Part shown: in pieces, positions 4,571 to 46,245 of the stretch | Position numbering within the stretch: the first letter of the stretch is position 1 | Layout: each line of letters opens with the position of its first letter | From: Janthinobacterium sp. | GTDB taxonomy: Bacteria; Pseudomonadota; Gammaproteobacteria; Burkholderiales; Burkholderiaceae_D | DNA: 64,000 nucleotides | Direction: 5' to 3' (one strand) | NCBI RefSeq assembly: GCF_025356595.1 | Contig: NZ_JANXSQ010000167.1 | Position numbers and translations under genes: made by a program | Notes under the pieces: generated by a model | Databases searched by the model: none | The model's input: the letters and a program-made list of their open reading frames with translations, nothing else | What the model was told of the DNA's origin: nothing

Positions 4571-5632
4571 ATGGGCTTGTTCTCAATATTCCGTAAAAAC
4601 AAGCAGGACGGCGCGTCCGTCGACAGCGGTTTTTATAACGCCGACGACCAGGCGGCAGGGGCGAAAGCTCGCTCCAAGCGCGCCAGCAACGCCGGCGCCG
4701 GCGCCGCGCCCCGGCGCGCCGCGAAGGAGGCCGCCGATCCCGTCTTGCCGGAAAAGAAACGCGCGCGCCGCCGCCTGATGGGCGCCATCGCGCTCGCCCT
4801 CGGCGTCGCCGTCGGCCTGCCGATGCTGCTCGATTCCGAACCGAAACCGCTGGCCTCGGACATCGCCTTCCAGATTCCCTCGAAGGACAAGCCGGCCGCC
4901 GCGCACGCGGCCCCGGCCGCCGCCCCGAGCTCCAGCGTGGCGGCCAGCGCCGCCCTGGACCAGTCCGAGGAAATCGTCACGGCGGCGGAGGCCAGGCCGA
5001 AGCCGGCCGCCCCGATCGCGCCCGTCCCGGCGGCCGCGCCGCAGGTGGCCGAAGTACGGACTTACACGGAACCGAAGCCGGAGGCGCCGGCCAAGGTGGC
5101 GGCCAAGCCCGACACCAAGTCGGACGAGCTCAAGGCGCACGAGGCGAAACTGGCCGAGGCCAGGGCGCGCGAGGCGAAGCTGGCCGAGGCCAAGGTTCGC
5201 GAGGCGCGCGAGGCGCGCGAAGCGAAGCTGCTCGAGGCCAAGGCGGCGCACGAGGCGAAGCTGGCCGAAGCCAAGGCGGCGCACGAGGCCAAGCCGGTCG
5301 AGGCCAAGCCCGCCGCCAAGCCTGCGCAGTCGGCCGACGACGCCACGCGCGCCCTGTCCATCCTGGAGGGCAAGGCGGCCGCCAAGCCGGCCGAGGCGGC
5401 CGCCGGCAGGTTCGTCGTGCAGGTCGCCGCGCTGGCGACGCAGGACAAGGTCGACGAGTTGCAGGAAAAGTTGCGCGACGCGGGCATCCATTCCTTCACT
5501 CAGAAAGTGCCAACCCCGGCCGGCGAGCGCATCCGCGTGCGCGTCGGTCCCTTCGGCAGCAGGGAAGACGCCGAGAAGGCGCGCGCCAAGCTGAACAAGC
5601 TGGGCCTGGGCGGCAGCCTGGTGCCGGTGTGA
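4571..5632 (+). CDS. SPOR domain cell-division protein (DedD-like)
   Basis: N-terminal basic region plus one TM segment (LMGAIALALGVAVGLPMLL). Ala/Pro/Lys/Glu low-complexity linker. C-terminal SPOR-like FVVQVAAL..RVRVGPF..AEKARAKL. Sits in the position folC-dedD-cvpA. Confidence 0.85.
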   Translation: MGLFSIFRKNKQDGASVDSGFYNADDQAAGAKARSKRASNAGAGAAPRRAAKEAADPVLPEKKRARRRLMGAIALALGVAVGLPMLLDSEPKPLASDIAFQIPSKDKPAAAHAAPAAAPSSSVAASAALDQSEEIVTAAEARPKPAAPIAPVPAAAPQVAEVRTYTEPKPEAPAKVAAKPDTKSDELKAHEAKLAEARAREAKLAEAKVREAREAREAKLLEAKAAHEAKLAEAKAAHEAKPVEAKPAAKPAQSADDATRALSILEGKAAAKPAEAAAGRFVVQVAALATQDKVDELQEKLRDAGIHSFTQKVPTPAGERIRVRVGPFGSREDAEKARAKLNKLGLGGSLVPV

Positions 5633-26199: not shown

Positions 26200-28150
<1,951 letters not shown>

Positions 28151-39965: not shown

Positions 39966-40023
39966 CCCAATTAACCTGGCGCCGGCCGGCCCAATGCGGG
40001 CCGGCGCCGCAGAAAAGAAGACT

Positions 40024-41346
<1,323 letters not shown>

Positions 41347-41361
41347 TTGTTGGATGTTCAG

Positions 41362-41394
41362 AAAAAAAGCGGCGATCTGATCGCCGCTTTTTTT
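41362..41394 (+). terminator. Strong (bidirectional-looking) terminator after hom
   Basis: A7-GCGGCGA-tctga-TCGCCGC-T7. Confidence 0.85.
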
Positions 41395-41647
41395 GTGCCT
41401 GGGGGGGGCTACGCAACTGACCCAAAGGCATACGAATCAATAGCTTGCGATGCTAATGAGTTTGACTCGTTCAAGTCAGCCACTTACTCTTCGCTCCCCG
41501 GCTCGACCACGGGAGCAGAAAGTTAGCCTAATCGGACAAGCACCGTCTCAAATGCGTTCGTCACTTGGTGACAGAACGTTACCCGTGGGGTGAAGTTAAT
41601 TTTTGGGGCTGCATGAGTCGAGTTCGCGAAATAAATACGGCGCTACC

Positions 41648-43189
41648 CTAACCGCGAGGCAAGGGGGTCTTCGTCTGCTCACGAACTAAGTCAGCGAAGA
41701 ACTTCGCAAGTGGCTGGACATTCTGGTAGGAGCTGGCCTGTTCAAGGGCAGCCATGTAGGGGCTGCGCTGTTGCAGCGGTACGATAGTCCAGACGTAGCC
41801 GCCCGTAACGAGCATCGCATTGAAAATGAAACGAGCCAGGCGCCCGTTTCCATCCATATACGGGTGAATGTAGACAAAGAAAAAGTGCCCTAGGACTGCG
41901 CGCACCGCCGAGTGTGGTTCGGATGCGAGGAGTTCGAAAAAGACTGGCATGCAATCGCGTACTGCCTCTTTGGACAATGGCACATGCAAAGCGCCACGAA
42001 TAAACACTTGGTCGTTCCGCCAGCCGGCCAGGTCCGAAGGCTTCAGAATGCCCGCTGTGACGCTTGGGCTAAAGAGTGCCCGATACCAGGAGCTCAACGC
42101 CTCATGGAGTGGCCAATTCGAGGGTTTTGTTCGAATGGCCGTTTCAATGTAATCCTTGAGCTTGAGGTGCGCTTCGAAGTAGCCTTTCGCCGCCATCGCG
42201 TCTCGGGCCTTTATGTCGTCTCCGTCTGGCTGCCATTGTCCATTCCGTACCTTCTCTATGAGATCGGGGGTGACTCGATAGCCCTCGATAGAAAGCGAAT
42301 GATAGGCGTCTGTAAGGTATCGCTCCTCCACCTGCGCCAGCGTGTCTTGAACGTTCCCGGGAGCCTTATCTGGAGCAGGGAACTCGTCGATGACTGTCTG
42401 CCGCATTTGTTGCCACATCAAACGCAAACGTTGAACGTACGGTGATTCAGGACGGCCGGCTGGAAGTTGCGCGGGTGCAACTTCAAACGGCATCGACTCA
42501 GTCACAGTTATGTTCACTGAGCGCATGGTCTCCAGAATCTCGTCTGCGACTTGGCTGCGGCCAATGGCGCGCATTCCGCCGGCAAGCCGTCCTGCGATGT
42601 GGGCGTGACCGCCATCGAGAAGAGGACGAAGTAGCTCAGTAAGGTCTTCGAGGCTTGCAAGCGCGATGCGCGCCGCCAATGGCTGCTGAGTAAAAAATGC
42701 AGGACCTACCGCCATGAGTGCTGCTGCTAAGGTGGCAAGGCGCAGCCCTCCGGCATCATGCGAGTCCTTGGAGTCGCACAGTTTTGGCGCTCGATATAAG
42801 AAAAGAGAGCAGCCATGGGGAAGTTTGACCAGCTGATTATTAGCGGCAAATGCCCATACCTGCAGCTGTTGCGGCAAACTGCGTTCGCCGGTTCTGAGCA
42901 TCAGCGATTGGTCCGGGGAGAGGTGCCAATCGGCTCCAAATCGCTCCTCGCAGTAGCCGGCGATGAACTCTCGCATGCGTGCGAACCACGCTGATGAGCT
43001 TCCGGCCTTCTCATCCGGACGGGATGCAAGATACCAGCCGCGAACGACCTCCTGAATAAAGCCCGATGCCTGCAGCCGCTGGCGGTCCATGCGCGGTAAG
43101 TCAGCGCTACGAAGTACGTGTTTGCCAGCCTTCTGCAGATCTGCCAGGAGTGTCAGTGATTTCGCAAGCAATTCCTGCTGGGTAGCCAT
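41648..43189 (-). CDS. Fic/Fido-domain protein with an N-terminal AbiEi-like wHTH region
   Basis: Fic motif HPYMDGNGRLAR. Class II inhibitory motif SLSIEG lies upstream in the same chain. The N-terminus ..HVLRSADLPRMDRQRLQASGFIQEVVRGWYLAS resembles AbiEi_4-type antitoxin HTHs. GC is lower than in the flanks. Confidence 0.88.
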   Translation of the reverse strand: MATQQELLAKSLTLLADLQKAGKHVLRSADLPRMDRQRLQASGFIQEVVRGWYLASRPDEKAGSSSAWFARMREFIAGYCEERFGADWHLSPDQSLMLRTGERSLPQQLQVWAFAANNQLVKLPHGCSLFLYRAPKLCDSKDSHDAGGLRLATLAAALMAVGPAFFTQQPLAARIALASLEDLTELLRPLLDGGHAHIAGRLAGGMRAIGRSQVADEILETMRSVNITVTESMPFEVAPAQLPAGRPESPYVQRLRLMWQQMRQTVIDEFPAPDKAPGNVQDTLAQVEERYLTDAYHSLSIEGYRVTPDLIEKVRNGQWQPDGDDIKARDAMAAKGYFEAHLKLKDYIETAIRTKPSNWPLHEALSSWYRALFSPSVTAGILKPSDLAGWRNDQVFIRGALHVPLSKEAVRDCMPVFFELLASEPHSAVRAVLGHFFFVYIHPYMDGNGRLARFIFNAMLVTGGYVWTIVPLQQRSPYMAALEQASSYQNVQPLAKFFADLVREQTKTPLPRG

Positions 43190-43303
43190 TGCACTATTCT
43201 TAAGTAATTTATTGCACTAGTTAGATGTATTGAGCTTCACTATTTTAATGCAATGTATCACACTAATTTTGAGTATTCAATTTCACTAGTTTGGCGTAGC
43301 TCG
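43189..43303. repeat. Five tandem degenerate direct repeats with an exact 23-bp period (consensus TTnCACTAnTTTnnnGTAnT)
   Basis: CACTA occurs at 43192, 43215, 43238, 43261 and 43284. T at column 10, G at column 16 and A at column 18 are invariant. The array starts at the fic start codon and extends 115 bp upstream. Confidence 0.85.
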
Positions 43304-43472
43304 CGGCGCGTGGGGCGCCAATGCCGGGCGGCCCTGACTCCGACCACCGCCCCGTCGCATACAGGCAACGGGTCCCATTCTGCTTCCCGACAGGGGCCGC
43401 AGGTTCAGCCCTCGTTGCCGGCACGGCCCTGGCTTGCGGCCGGACGGCGCAAACCCGCATGAGCGGGCGCTG

Positions 43473-43958
43473 CTATTTTTTCGCAGCCGCCTCGCCCTTG
43501 GCACCCGCGCGCCTGGCGAGCAATGGGATCCGTTCAGTCGCGCTCACATCGCGGATCGCGACATCCCACGCGCCATGCGGAGCGGCGGCGAAAGAAACCG
43601 TGTAGACGTGACCCGCCTCGACATCGATGATTTTTTTCAGCGGGAAGCGCGAGCTCGAGCTCGAGGTAGTCAGGTCTATGTGATACGTGTATTCGACGAC
43701 ATGCTTGCCCGGCAAGATCTCTATTTCTCTACCGCCCAGCGTGACCGGAAATTCCGACCGGACGTAGTCGTCCACGAGAATGCCATCGACGCTATACATG
43801 TTAATTGCCTGACTATTCAGAAAGACGCCCACGTCGTCGAGTGCGTGCAGATTTCCCGCGTAAACGGGAATCCGCCGGGGAGTCATTGTTGCTGAGCAGG
43901 CACTGAGTAAAAGCAATGCGGTGACGCATGCAACAGTGCGAAGTTGATGTTTGAGCAT
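43473..43958 (-). CDS. Hypothetical lipoprotein
   Basis: MLKHQLRTVACVTALLLLSAC signal peptide with lipobox. Beta-rich mature part. No family recognised. The alternative start is 43982. Confidence 0.65.
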   Translation of the reverse strand: MLKHQLRTVACVTALLLLSACSATMTPRRIPVYAGNLHALDDVGVFLNSQAINMYSVDGILVDDYVRSEFPVTLGGREIEILPGKHVVEYTYHIDLTTSSSSSRFPLKKIIDVEAGHVYTVSFAAAPHGAWDVAIRDVSATERIPLLARRAGAKGEAAAKK

Positions 43959-44060
43959 TTGAAAACCAATTAGTTGATGCATGGAAACATTATTGTAGCA
44001 TCATCTGACTTCACGCCGTCCCAAAAACACCGGCCCGCGACCGCGCGCCGACCCTCGTCC

Positions 44061-45542
44061 TTAAGCCTGCGGCCGCGTTTCCTGCGCGGCGGCGGGGAAG
44101 CTGACCGTGACGCGCAGGCCGCGTCCGCCTGCGCCGTCGGCCAGGCTGACGGCGGCGCCGTGCAGGGCGGCGATGTCGCGCACGATGGCCAGGCCCAGGC
44201 CGGCGCCGCCGGGGTTGCGCTCGAGCGCGGCGGCGGCGCGGTAGAAGGGCGCGAAGACGCGCTCGCGCTCGGCGGCGGCGATGCCGGCGCCGTTGTCCTC
44301 GACCTCCAGGATGGCGGCTTCGCCGTCGCGCGCCACGCGCAGGCTGACGCTGCCGCCGTCGGCCGTGTAGCGCAGCGCGTTGTCGACCAGGTTGGCCACC
44401 AGTTCGTGCAGCAGCAGCGCCTGGCCGTGCACGAGGGCGTCGTCGGCGCCGTCGAGCGACAGGTCGATGCCGCGCGCCACGGCGAGCAGGGCCATCTCCA
44501 GTCCCACCTGCTGCAGCACGGCGCGCAGCGACACCGGCGCCATGCCGGCCGCCACGCCGCCGTGTTCGACGCGCGCCAGCGTCAGCAGGCGGTTCGCCAG
44601 ATGCACGGTGGCGTCGGTGGTGGCGGCGATGGAGCGCACGATGTCGGCCAGCGCGGCCGGGTCGCCGGCGCCGCGCCGGAATTCGCGCTGCGCCAGTTCG
44701 GCCTGGGTCTTCAGCACCGTCAGCGGCGTGCGCAACTGGTGCGAGGCGTCGGCGATGAAGCGGCGCTGGCTGGCGATCAGGTCCTGCAGGCGCGCCATCG
44801 AGCCGTTCATGGCCGTCACCAGCGGGCGCATCTCGCGGTGCACCAGCGCCGGGTCGACGTCGGACAGGTCGGCCGGGGTGCGCGTCTCGAGCGCGCTTTT
44901 CAGGCGCATCAGCGGGCGCAGTACCAGGCGCACGGCGAACCAGACCAGGGTCGCCACGGCCAGCACCATGCCGGCCTGCCACAGCAGCGTGTCGAACAGG
45001 ATCTGGTTCGACAGGCCGCGCCGCGCGTCCAGCGTTTCGCCCACCTGGATCAGGGCGATGCCGCGCATCGAGTCGTCGTAGACCGGCTGCAGCAGGGCGG
45101 CGATGCGGATCGGCTCGCCGTTGTAGTTGGCGTGGTAGAAGCGCACCAGCGCCGGGTAGGCTTCCGAGCGCGGCACGTTGGCGGGCACCGCCGGCAGGTC
45201 GTCGTAGCCGGACACCAGTTCGCCGTGGATGCCGGTGACCTTGTAGTAGATGCGCCCCAGGGTGTCGGTCTCGAAGCTGTCGAGGGCGACGTAGGGCACG
45301 TCGGCGACGACCTTGCCGCCGACGATGGAGACGCGCTCGGCCAGCGCCCGCGTCGAGGCCAGCAGCGAGCGGTCGTAGGCCATGTCGGCCGCGTCGAGGG
45401 CGTTGCGGTAGACCGAGACGGCGTTCAGCGCCACCAGCATGACGAGGGGGATCAGCAACCAGCGCAGCAGTTCGTTGCGCAGGCTGCCCAGCGGCGCGCC
45501 GCCGCCCAGGCGGCTCTTCAGGCGCGCCAGCGCGCCGCCCAT
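44061..45542 (-). CDS. tctE: Two-component sensor histidine kinase (TctE-like)
   Basis: Two TM segments around a periplasmic domain. H-box ASHQLRTPLT. N, G1 and G2 boxes (DNALRY, DNGAGI, GGAGLGLAIV). Confidence 0.88.
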   Translation of the reverse strand: MGGALARLKSRLGGGAPLGSLRNELLRWLLIPLVMLVALNAVSVYRNALDAADMAYDRSLLASTRALAERVSIVGGKVVADVPYVALDSFETDTLGRIYYKVTGIHGELVSGYDDLPAVPANVPRSEAYPALVRFYHANYNGEPIRIAALLQPVYDDSMRGIALIQVGETLDARRGLSNQILFDTLLWQAGMVLAVATLVWFAVRLVLRPLMRLKSALETRTPADLSDVDPALVHREMRPLVTAMNGSMARLQDLIASQRRFIADASHQLRTPLTVLKTQAELAQREFRRGAGDPAALADIVRSIAATTDATVHLANRLLTLARVEHGGVAAGMAPVSLRAVLQQVGLEMALLAVARGIDLSLDGADDALVHGQALLLHELVANLVDNALRYTADGGSVSLRVARDGEAAILEVEDNGAGIAAAERERVFAPFYRAAAALERNPGGAGLGLAIVRDIAALHGAAVSLADGAGGRGLRVTVSFPAAAQETRPQA

Positions 45543-45543
45543 C

Positions 45544-46245
45544 TCAGCGCGCCGCCGTCGCGCCGCGCGGCTGCAGCAGGTAGCCGATGCCGCGCAGGGT
45601 GGTGATGGCGGCCGCGTCGGGGGCGCCGCTTTCGAGCTTCTTGCGCACGCGGTGGATGTACAGTTCGATGGCGTCGAGGTTGGCGTCGTCCTCCAGCGCG
45701 AAGACTTCGTCGAACAGCTTTTCCTTCGACACGGCGCGCCCCGCGCGGGTGATCAGGGCCTCCAGCACGGCGTGCTCGCGCGGCGTCAGCGCCAGCGCCG
45801 CGCCGGCGTAGGTGAACATGCGCGTGATGGTGTCGAAGCTGAGCGCGCCGCACTGGTGCACCAGCGCCTCGTTGCCCTGGCTGCGGCGCAGCAGGGCCTT
45901 CACGCGCGCCTCCAGTTCGGCCAGTTCGAAGGGCTTGGCCAGGTAGTCGTCGGCGCCCAGGTTGAGGCCCTGCACGCGCTCGTCCAGGCCGCCGCGCGCC
46001 GTGAGTATCATCACCGGCGTCTTGGCGCGCGGGCCGCCGCGCGCGCGCAGGCGCTTCAGCACGTCGAGGCCGTCCATGCGCGGCAGCGTCAGGTCGAGCA
46101 GCACCAGCGCGTAGTCCTGGGTGTGCAGCAGGGCGTCGGCGTCGGCGCCGTTGTTGACCGTTTCGACCGTCAGGTGGGTGTCGCGCAGGGCCTTGGCCAG
46201 CCAGCGCGACAGTTCCAGATGGTCTTCGACTAAGAGTATTCGCAT
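45544..46245 (-). CDS. tctD: OmpR-family response regulator (TctD-like)
   Basis: MRILLVEDH..LDLTLP receiver domain plus a winged-helix output domain (TLRGIGY). Confidence 0.9.
   Translation of the reverse strand: MRILLVEDHLELSRWLAKALRDTHLTVETVNNGADADALLHTQDYALVLLDLTLPRMDGLDVLKRLRARGGPRAKTPVMILTARGGLDERVQGLNLGADDYLAKPFELAELEARVKALLRRSQGNEALVHQCGALSFDTITRMFTYAGAALALTPREHAVLEALITRAGRAVSKEKLFDEVFALEDDANLDAIELYIHRVRKKLESGAPDAAAITTLRGIGYLLQPRGATAAR

Follow-up and report, generated by a model that had tools for sequence, protein, structure and literature searches.

A periodic repeat array abutting the start codon of an AbiEi-like/Fic fusion gene is a candidate autoregulatory operator

Overview

Directly upstream of a fic gene in a Janthinobacterium contig, we found five contiguous 23 bp repeats that probably form a multi-site autoregulatory operator. 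By analogy with AbiEi antitoxins, each unit would be bound by one monomer of the fic product through its AbiEi-like region, and we put the probability of this reading at roughly 0.7. Arrays with a period of 23 or 24 bp accompany related fic genes in at least six phyla, and the repeat-plus-fic module appears not to have been described to date. Fic enzymes are potent protein-modifying toxins whose restraint in bacteria is partly understood. To our knowledge, three routes of restraint are known, namely an inhibitory helix, separate antitoxins and, in the single case of CccR, autorepression. The family described here, large and unstudied, joins a Fic domain to an AbiEi-type regulator and travels with a putative operator array; it offers a directly testable model of transcriptional control for a Fic toxin.

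The array adjoins the fic start codon

The window, which is the whole 64,000 nucleotide stretch of DNA that was analysed, carries the fic open reading frame on the minus strand (41648..43189; 513 aa), and the array therefore lies directly 5' of the fic ATG. On the same strand, the array occupies 43190..43304 as five head-to-tail units of 23 bp, numbered from the fic-proximal end (unit 1, 43190-43212; unit 2, 43213-43235; unit 3, 43236-43258; unit 4, 43259-43281; unit 5, 43282-43304). An earlier note on this DNA had the array begin at the first base of the ATG. It does adjoin the start codon, but 43189 is part of that codon, and the array itself starts at 43190 and ends at 43304. The five copies of CACTA that the note had placed 23 bp apart on the plus strand were recovered at 43192, 43215, 43238, 43261 and 43284, and the columns listed as invariant (T10, G16 and A18, with units counted from 43189) are the same in all five units. 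In fic orientation CACTA reads TAGTG, and these invariant cores (43192-96, 43215-19, 43238-42, 43261-65 and 43284-88, minus strand) are at -7, -30, -53, -76 and -99 relative to the start codon. As all five share one strand, the repeats are direct and not inverted. AAn precedes each core, and a second conserved block, TAC, is found approximately 10 bp upstream of it in each unit. Across the 27 units that make up a profile of the six closest loci, T7, A15 and A18-G19-T20-G21 are invariant, and A8, C9 and T17 are nearly so. The region is AT-rich, with 36% GC against approximately 67% for the genome.

The array is far beyond chance. Four adjacent CACTA-N18-CACTA pairs were observed where shuffles of the whole window gave an expectation of 0.01, and when the 121 bp AT-rich region was dinucleotide-shuffled 5,000 times, periodic 5-mer chains reached no more than three members, compared with five in the real sequence. 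A repeat finder independently returned one family with spacings of 23/23/23. Tandem Repeats Finder, for which units about 60-70% alike are too divergent, reported no repeat here and was replaced for array detection by tests of exact spacing and autocorrelation. When the array was scored with a matrix built from relatives' units only (22 units from five relatives), its five units reached 18-29 bits. Apart from these five, no site in the 64 kb reached the matrix threshold, which favours the operator reading.

A sigma-70-like promoter is predicted within the array, and a repeat core falls in the spacer of this promoter. The best sigma-70-like match upstream of fic in a custom scan was TTGAAT-17-TACATT plus an extended -10 TG. 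The predicted -35 hexamer, TTGAAT, is in unit 4 (43275..43280, minus strand), and the predicted extended -10, TGaTACATT, is at 43252..43260 on the same strand (hexamer 43252-57, TG 43259-60), its TG being the final two bases of the unit 4 TAGTGTG. A consensus promoter scan with a threshold of 9 of 12 called no promoter upstream of fic. Approximately 14 of 20 proteobacterial relatives have predicted promoters of like geometry, whose 17 bp spacer has a repeat core at its 3' end, and close relatives conserve TAGTGTGATACAtT. Hexamers resembling a -10 are present in every array unit. From the predicted promoter, transcription would begin approximately 56 nt 5' of the ATG; the alternative would be a leaderless transcript driven by the AAGAAT/TAAAAT element at -12..-7.

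Related fic genes carry periodic arrays

The earlier note had named orthologous loci lacking any conserved periodic motif as one observation that would speak against an operator. Instead, periodic arrays were found upstream of fic at 77 of 79 related loci, representing at least six phyla. The period is 24 bp in 69 of these arrays and 23 bp in the remaining 8, and each array contains three to six head-to-tail units. The 3' edge of the array is no more than approximately 30 bp from the ATG in nearly all loci, and polarity relative to fic is kept in 72 of 75. The best autocorrelation lag was 23, 24, 46 or 48 in 75 of 78 fic-upstream regions, but in only 9.3% of 3,942 control windows. Those that gave strong 24 or 48 bp signals are coding DNA with codon periodicity and were rejected as second arrays. 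The units share a common scaffold, ACAcAATAA..AT.G.ACA, and have lineage-specific cores (TAGTG, TCGTG, TCTTG, AAGCGA, AAGCTA, AACCTA, AATCTAGC and AAACTA). In the clade with the 23 bp period, the last core adjoins the ATG and no Shine-Dalgarno sequence is visible, a combination that the operator model leaves unexplained.

Sequence comparison places the array and the fic gene in a single inherited unit. In close relatives with 80-93% DNA identity, similarity has its limits precisely at the array edge and the fic stop codon, and these relatives occupy unrelated genomic contexts. No neighbouring gene was conserved around fic in the 81 loci compared. The locus examined here lies on the chromosome, flanked by hom and a two-component system, and in relatives the genes nearby (HipA, AEP primase, AAA_21 and HTH_17) are characteristic of mobile or defence islands.

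The N-terminal 275 aa region was found essentially only in Fic fusions of approximately 510 aa (1,073 clusters). The family amounts to approximately 1,000 clusters at 50% identity, spread over many phyla, and members are present in 141 plasmid records. When metagenome contigs were scanned from the DNA side, for four copies of TAGTG at 23 bp intervals, at least 80 stretches were returned. Among the matches listed, these were unrelated, near-identical 23 bp satellites and a few uninterpretable arrays; no Fic gene accompanied them, which has no bearing on exclusivity.

The fic product joins an AbiEi-like fold to a class II Fic domain

The start methionine of the fic product is conserved across homologs. 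A fold search with the full-length model was swamped by Fic matches, and aa 1-275 (42365..43189, minus strand) were modelled separately instead (AF2, pLDDT 89). The model predicts a winged helix-turn-helix at aa 1-62 (43004-43189, minus strand), with a putative recognition helix, RMDRQRLQA, at aa 33-41 (43067-43093, minus strand). Its N-terminal elements (helix 4-20, strand 25-27, short helix 28-30, helix 33-41, strands 45-49 and 52-55) follow the topology published for AbiEi (PMC3985639). When this model was used to query the PDB with Foldseek, the sole significant matches were two AbiEi antitoxins, Rv2827c (1ZEL_A; E 5.7e-5, TM 0.51/0.48, 303 columns) and Streptococcus agalactiae AbiEi (6Y8Q_D; E 1.7e-4), and nothing else fell below E 0.001.

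Sequence profiles did not connect this region with AbiEi. Pfam gave no match at E up to 10 for the N-terminal 280 aa or 100 aa and none at E up to 1 for the N-terminus in any of 34 family members, an NCBIfam scan of the N-terminus returned nothing, and AbiEi was also missing from the results when PDB sequences were searched with a profile. As AbiEi matches were missing from Pfam and NCBIfam, kinship to the AbiEi family (COG5340) rests on predicted structure, with a TM of approximately 0.5. The AbiEi-like N-terminus proposed in the earlier note is thus supported at the level of the modelled fold, and not by sequence profiles.

The Fic domain is C-terminal and forms the end of the protein. From its profile matches and motifs, it is a FICD-like class II domain and a putative AMP-transferase. 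The Pfam Fic match has an E value of 1.8e-10 and the FICD profile matches aa 274-503 at 7e-23. The active-site motif HPYMDGNGRLAR, in which Y replaces F, is at aa 442-453 (41831..41866, minus strand). N-terminal to it in the same chain is SLSIEG (aa 298-303; 42281..42298, minus strand), which is invariant in the family and fits (S/T)xxxE(G/N), the inhibitory helix that marks class II Fic proteins in the definition quoted in PMC9755527. The VbhA model matched weakly at this position in 22 of 34 family members. The PADLOC SoFic defence model was matched at 1e-19, with coverage of the Fic part alone (model positions 58-265 of 361).

Comparison with known regulators

The earlier note had described AbiEi as autoregulating through 23 bp repeats in its promoter. 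This is correct, though the published repeats are inverted and gapped (PMC3985639, PMC7319586). S. agalactiae AbiEi binds two such repeats in its own promoter and Mycobacterium tuberculosis Rv2827c binds four, in both cases as monomers with one per repeat; the repeats overlap the promoter, lie no more than approximately 130 bp from the start codon and bring about repression (PMC3985639, PMC7319586). The antitoxicity domain of AbiE is the C-terminal domain of AbiEi (PMC3985639). AbiE operators and the fic array are alike in repeat size (approximately 23 bp), number and position, the fic promoter being placed within the array by prediction, and the modelled Fic N-terminus appears to share the two-domain fold of AbiEi and Rv2827c, a winged helix and a C-terminal domain. 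However, AbiE sites are inverted pairs 3, 4 or 13 bp apart, whereas the 4-6 putative sites of the fic family are direct repeats that follow one another without gaps at a strict period of 23 or 24 bp, and this difference counts against the operator reading. If the modelled kinship is right, one DNA-binding module may have switched from sites in inverted pairs to sites in a head-to-tail array. The AbiE toxin is a DUF1814/AbiEii nucleotidyltransferase encoded by a separate gene in a bicistronic operon, whereas here the Fic domain is fused to the regulator; a second class of nucleotidyl-transferring toxin, unrelated to the first, would then have acquired the AbiEi module. AbiEi and the AbiEi-Fic proteins are unconnected by sequence profiles, and the published AbiE 23 bp sites had no significant match to the fic-family unit profile (0.50 and 0.07) in what is a low-power test.

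CccR of Yersinia pseudotuberculosis belongs to class II of the Fic proteins; it has the (S/T)xxxE(G/N) helix and a DNA-binding domain, and represses its own promoter (PMC9755527). This precedent favours autoregulation at fic, as AbiEi-Fic is also a class II Fic protein with a DNA-binding domain, albeit a putative one. The arrangements differ. The helix-turn-helix of CccR and SoFic-type proteins is C-terminal, after the Fic domain, whereas the AbiEi-like module is N-terminal, and CccR acts as a dimer on one inverted repeat, AGATAATCAT-N26-ATGATAATCT, whereas the fic operator would be a direct array.

OmpR/PhoB winged helices bind tandem direct repeats head-to-tail, often at several boxes that cover a promoter. 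The proposed binding of AbiEi-Fic would resemble this, with winged-helix domains head-to-tail on direct repeats. However, OmpR/PhoB half-sites are approximately 10-11 bp, their dimers are phosphorylation dependent, and the protein family is unrelated to AbiEi-Fic.

A model for autoregulation

Several findings underlie the operator model: the array is non-random, it keeps its period, orientation and place across the family and is inherited together with fic, and the protein combines an AbiEi-like fold with a class II Fic domain. The model also draws on a promoter whose place within the array we infer from its sequence. Each 23 bp unit would be the site for one N-terminal region (the winged helix and the domain that follows it) of the gene's own product. 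As the units are contiguous and in the same orientation, the bound proteins would form a head-to-tail row that extends from approximately 115 bp upstream to the start codon. With the whole promoter (-35, spacer and extended -10) and the leader hidden beneath such a row, transcription of a potentially toxic AMP-transferase would be shut off.

Other explanations for the array

The Fic protein could bind the array as a DNA-bound oligomer that controls the enzyme, through sequestration or an activity switch, and not as a simple repressor. In that case a single gene would make up a toxin-antitoxin or defence switch, with the operator DNA as its cofactor. The strict period, polarity and 4-6 contiguous sites exceed what is needed to occlude one promoter, the AbiEi C-terminal domain that carries the antitoxicity of AbiE has its counterpart fused here to a toxin-type domain, and both the SoFic match and the island-type neighbours of relatives agree with a role in defence. 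However, one chromosomal array holds just five molecules or so, and autoinhibition is already supplied by the fused helix SLSIEG. We regard this reading as fairly unlikely, and as unlikely a more specific form, in which the array is a nucleation track for polymerisation of AbiEi-Fic and the promoter DNA is both operator and cofactor in silencing the AMP-transferase. If the protein then came off the DNA, for instance because it was diluted or because of DNA damage or phage attack, fic would be derepressed and the enzyme unleashed at once, in a one-gene toxin-antitoxin or abortive-infection switch whose 'antitoxin' is the fused domain together with its own operator.

Binding by another factor, such as a host regulator or nucleoid protein, would leave the Fic N-terminus with some other task, as would a role for the repeats as tandem promoters or UP-like AT-rich elements. 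The low GC content, the -10-like hexamers in every unit and the failure of mutual information and a partial Mantel test to single out the winged helix in covariation with the cores (see below) are consistent with this. However, AT-richness alone yields no exact period, the array moves with the fic gene into unrelated contexts, and lineage-specific cores co-diverge with the Fic protein over at least six phyla, which a shared host factor could not follow. We consider a foreign binder or such elements improbable. A role in the mRNA leader, with UAGUG motifs bound by protein or a structure controlling translation, would suit an array that reaches to 2 nt before the ATG in a clade without Shine-Dalgarno sequences, and units 1-3 would be transcribed if the predicted promoter is right. 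However, the RNA folds no better than shuffles (z = +0.43) and has no Rfam match, the units upstream of the predicted -35/-10 are conserved equally with those downstream, and the associated domain is modelled as a winged-helix fold with DNA-binding relatives. RNA readings, which we judge very improbable, were rejected for want of an Rfam match and of excess folding.

The iterons of theta plasmids (pPS10, R6K, RK2 and F) are 4-7 direct repeats with a period of approximately 22-23 bp that adjoin the gene of the protein that binds them, and are bound by winged-helix Rep monomers. The fic array resembles them in form only, as direct repeats of this length with a putative winged-helix monomer on each, and the family is present on plasmids. 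The earlier note had called the array 'iteron- or operator-like'. The operator half of this description is upheld by the conserved arrays; the iteron half is not, as there is no Rep protein or other origin hallmark, no DnaA box was found anywhere in the 64 kb window, the locus is chromosomal, and an array that keeps its place and orientation with respect to the fic ATG in 72 of 75 loci suits a promoter element. An alternative in which the repeats are a protein-binding end of a mobile element would account for similarity among relatives starting exactly at the array edge. However, similarity stops at the fic stop codon, leaving one repeat-bearing end only, and no rep, transposase or integrase gene adjoining fic is conserved in the 81 loci. 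Both the origin reading, with neither a conserved rep-like neighbour nor DnaA boxes, and the mobile-end reading, with no recombinase in the similarity block, were rejected as extremely unlikely.

Divergence of cores and proteins

If the operator reading holds, the family provides a natural series of matched protein and operator pairs with differing cores, which could show how AbiEi-type winged helices read DNA. Divergence of the array units correlates with that of the proteins (r approximately 0.6), and a partial Mantel test likewise found joint divergence of array and protein, but no signal for the core specific to the winged helix-turn-helix. Mutual information between protein columns and core positions averaged 0.53 for the N-terminal and 0.49 for the C-terminal part, with phylogeny dominating. 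When recognition helices were tabulated against cores, covariation was partial, and the single helix RTHRERL was paired with several different cores.

A 23 bp repeat array directly upstream of fic

The five CACTA pentamers at a 23 bp period reported in the earlier note were confirmed by re-reading the window sequence. They start at 43192, 43215, 43238, 43261 and 43284 on the + strand, exactly 23 bp apart, and the further columns described as invariant (T10, G16 and A18) hold in the array units on re-inspection. As the sole long ORF at this locus is the minus-strand fic gene (41648..43189, 513 aa), the array lies directly upstream of the fic ATG, and on the fic strand its TAGTG core is found at -7, -30, -53, -76 and -99 relative to that ATG. 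The array region is AT-rich (121 bp, 36% GC). In the window, 4 adjacent CACTA-N18-CACTA pairs were observed against 0.01 expected, and the longest periodic 5-mer chain, 5, compares with 3 or fewer in 5,000 dinucleotide-preserving shuffles of the array's 121 bp. An independent repeat finder returned a single family at the array, with 23/23/23 spacing and no systematic inverted symmetry. The pair counts, shuffles and repeat finder together exclude chance as the source of the periodicity. Tandem Repeats Finder did not detect the array because its units are just 60–70% alike (approximate range).

An imperfect inverted repeat (TTGGCGTAGCTCGCG and CGCGTGGGGCGCCAA, 1 nt apart, 43291–43321) falls exactly on the array's GC-rich distal edge, overlapping unit 5; it could represent a boundary or what is left of a terminator. 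In the autocorrelation control, the strongest short-period self-similarities in the window outside the array were at 5051–5350 (lags 30/33, identity 0.57–0.68) and 27651–27950 (lags 9/18/54, identity 0.55–0.68), and both are probably repetitive coding sequence.

Arrays accompany fic relatives in many phyla

We examined 80 loci with fic relatives (48–75% identity) from species-representative genomes, with record names that include Beta-, Gamma-, Alpha- and Deltaproteobacteria, Myxococcota, Bacteroidota, Acidobacteriota, Verrucomicrobiota and Vampirovibrio. When periodic 5-mers were sought without bias, a short word turned up in 3–6 copies at a 23 or 24 bp period upstream of nearly every relative. 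The best autocorrelation lag was 23, 24, 46 or 48 in 75 of 78 usable fic-upstream regions, and the same lags were best in just 9.3% of 3,942 other 150 bp windows from these loci. The strongest of the control windows lie inside GC-rich coding sequence, and they peak at 24 and 48 because both lags are multiples of three in coding DNA. The earlier note had named the absence of a periodic motif from related fic loci as refuting its reading; a segment caller found arrays in 77 of 79 loci (period 24 in 69, period 23 in 8), typically of 3.5–5 copies and nearly all terminating within approximately 30 bp of the ATG.

The units share one scaffold in a single register, ACAcAATAA-(variable 10-15)-..AT.G.ACA, with lineage-specific cores (TAGTG, TCGTG, TCTTG, AAGCGA, AAGCTA, AACCTA, AATCTAGC and AAACTA), and TAGTG in the window falls at the unit positions that it has in TAGTG-type relatives. 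Relative to the fic gene, units keep their polarity in 72/75 loci; in the remaining three, scores are close to zero whichever way the unit is read. In the upstream 150 bp of 11 loci (L002, L003, L006, L027, L029, L030, L036, L049, L072, L078 and L079), lag 48 was stronger than lag 24, with alternate units more alike than adjacent ones, as in L003. Such a pattern suggests a super-repeat of two units, which may be bound in pairs.

The array and fic form one module

No conserved flanking gene was found, the best-shared neighbour cluster being present in 6/81 loci. Five metagenomic relatives (86–93% protein and 80–93% DNA identity) are in unrelated contexts, with neighbours that include a GGDEF gene, an AEP primase with an AAA_21 ATPase, a sigma/anti-sigma pair and VIT1. 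All five have 4–5 units at exactly 23 bp, with cores at -7/-30/-53/-76(/-99), and the core is TAGTG except for CAGTG in the distal unit of two of them (L081 and L084). BLASTN similarity to the window has its start at the array's distal edge (-76 to -122). In the closest relative it runs on to +151; in the others it breaks off a few bases from the fic stop codon. The 27 units of these five loci and the window all share T7, A15 and A18-G-T-G21, and nearly all share A8, C9 and T17, while the remaining positions drift. Invariant blocks amid drifting positions are a signature of selection, and judged from this alignment the units are under selection as a putative bipartite site, TAC ... AAnTAGTG. 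The five relatives' 22 units, without those of the window, were used to build a matrix. It scored the window's five units at 18–29 bits, and no further site reached its threshold on either strand of the 64 kb.

In the window, fic lies in a lower-GC island (41347–44000, GC 0.48–0.61 versus 0.65–0.80 in the flanks) bordered by a homoserine dehydrogenase gene (39994..41346, + strand) and a two-component system (44061..45542 and 45544..46245, both - strand). The island also holds a 169 aa ORF (43473..43982, - strand) with a lipoprotein-like signal, LLLSACS, and no match in Pfam, NCBIfam or PADLOC. As close fic relatives are without this ORF, it is outside the fic module. Members of the family occur on plasmids (141 records), with virtually none in phage genomes.

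Relatives are frequently in toxin-antitoxin, defence or mobile-element contexts. In L087, a second, divergent 270 aa Fic gene (617–1429, - strand) and HipA (1–616) are directly upstream; in L013 (2503–3756), L082 and L086 the neighbours are a HipA-like gene, an AEP primase with NTase_sub_bind and an AAA_21 ATPase, and an HTH_17 excisionase-like gene with SSB. A DNA-first metagenome scan for four TAGTG at 23 bp returned, among the matches listed, unrelated satellites only. These contigs (L088–L167, many from termite-gut samples) carry near-identical 23 bp tandem satellites of up to 22 copies (e.g. L114, unit GTCGTGTTCTAGTGCAGGTAAnG) that contain TAGTG by coincidence, and none of the matches listed has a Fic gene nearby.

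The Fic protein has a predicted AbiEi-like N-terminal fold

Pfam recognized the Fic domain alone (aa 388–460), and a family profile matched human FICD over aa 274–503 (7e-23). The Fic motif, HPYMDGNGRLAR, is at aa 442–453 and the inhibitory-helix motif, SLSIEG, is N-terminal to it in the same chain (aa 298–303). Therefore, by the definition in PMC9755527, the fic product is, on its sequence motifs, a class II Fic protein. The Pfam model of VbhA, a class I Fic antitoxin, matched weakly at the inhibitory helix in 22/34 family members (aa 292–312 in the window protein, 42254–42316), which fits the fused helix being homologous to free Fic antitoxins.

Residues 1–275 had no match in Pfam, NCBIfam or PDB sequences, using permissive thresholds and also trying 34 family members. 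Used alone as the query in an exhaustive search, this region returned 1,073 clusters at 50% identity. All of its full-length matches were Fic fusions of approximately 500–530 aa, so the region is specific to this architecture. Homologs retain the start methionine. AlphaFold2 models were confident (pLDDT 84 for the full length, 89 for aa 1–275) and predict a winged helix at aa 4–55 (helix-strand-helix-helix-hairpin), then a beta-rich module and a helical module. A fold search with the full-length model was swamped by Fic structures. With the N-terminal model alone, only two PDB targets were significant, Rv2827c (1ZEL; E 5.7e-5, TM approximately 0.5 over approximately 300 columns) and Streptococcus agalactiae AbiEi (6Y8Q; E 1.7e-4). 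Thus, the AbiEi-like N-terminus proposed in the earlier note stands at the level of predicted fold but not by sequence profile. Ranking below these, aa ~66–275 gave weak fold matches (E 0.05–0.6) to the nucleotidyltransferases MenT1, JHP933 and ANT(2'')-Ia, and no nucleotidyltransferase catalytic motif is visible in that sequence.

A predicted promoter within the array

A generic promoter scan found none at its threshold. The best sigma-70-like match in a custom scan falls inside the array (- strand), with a predicted -35, TTGAAT, at 43275–43280, a 17 bp spacer ending in the unit-4 core, and a predicted extended -10, TGaTACATT, at 43252–43260 whose TG is the last TG of the unit-4 core region. 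The TAGTGTGATACAtT string is kept in close relatives. Matching promoter/core geometry is predicted in approximately 14/20 proteobacterial relatives, among which a perfect TTGACA is frequent (e.g. L004, L007, L008, L014, L049 and L072). The predicted start site would leave approximately two units upstream and three in a leader of approximately 56 nt. In the 23 bp clade, no Shine-Dalgarno sequence is visible and the last core is fixed as TAGTG-NN-ATG. Comparison of positions -12..-1 (43190–43201 in the window) with L081–L085, the close relatives, revealed TAAAAT at -12..-7 in three and AAGAAT there in the window. A -10 at this place would yield a leaderless mRNA beginning at the A of the ATG, and TAAAAT could be an alternative promoter for such a transcript.

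Proposed autorepression

We put at about 0.9 the probability that the array acts in cis as a protein-binding element linked to the fic gene, and consider it probable, with less confidence, that the product of fic itself binds the array and represses. Each unit would bind one protein copy through the AbiEi-like region. With units that adjoin one another and all face the same way, the bound copies would form a head-to-tail row covering -35, spacer, -10 and leader, and transcription of the AMP-transferase, a potentially toxic enzyme, would be repressed by the occupied array. A less likely variant is that the array serves as a track for assembly and governs the activity of Fic as well.

The repeats are unlikely to act at the RNA level: Rfam gave no match, folding had a z-score of +0.43, and conservation is as good in units upstream of the predicted promoter as in those downstream. 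We also doubt that the array consists of iterons or marks a transposon end: there is no rep or recombinase gene, a DnaA box is absent from the window, only one end bears repeats, and the array is in a fixed relation to the ATG. Reading of the array by a host factor fits poorly with a phylum-wide spread and lineage-specific cores that co-diverge with the protein.

That AbiEi autoregulates through 23 bp promoter repeats, as the earlier note stated, agrees with the literature. AbiEi and Rv2827c are monomers that bind one 23 bp repeat each and repress their own operon, for which they must be full-length; PabiE has two repeats, inverted and 3 bp apart, and Prv2827c has four, which overlap the promoter and fall between -1 and -131 relative to the start codon (PMC3985639, PMC7319586). 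The unit length here is therefore that of the known monomer footprint, and we propose that the array works like an AbiEi operator. However, the fic family has no AbiEi sequence-profile match, no separate DUF1814 partner is present at the fic locus, and the co-oriented, contiguous arrangement differs from the inverted PabiE repeats. Similarity between published AbiE site sequences and the family unit was not detectable. Autorepression has a precedent among class II Fic proteins in CccR, which uses a C-terminal HTH, together with an inverted repeat, to repress its own promoter (PMC9755527). No paper on the AbiEi-Fic fusion or its array was found in a search whose scope left most subscription journals outside, and databases name the family no more specifically than 'Fic family protein' or 'hypothetical protein'.

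Raw mutual information between protein and DNA was dominated by phylogeny. Unit divergence and protein divergence are correlated (r approximately 0.6), with no domain-specific signal that would pin the covariation to the winged helix, and one recognition-helix sequence, RTHRERL, is found with several cores. Some pairings are suggestive: AATCTAGC cores pair with R-M/L/I-Q-R-E-S-L, and 23 bp loci have R50 in 8/8 and D35 in 7/8.
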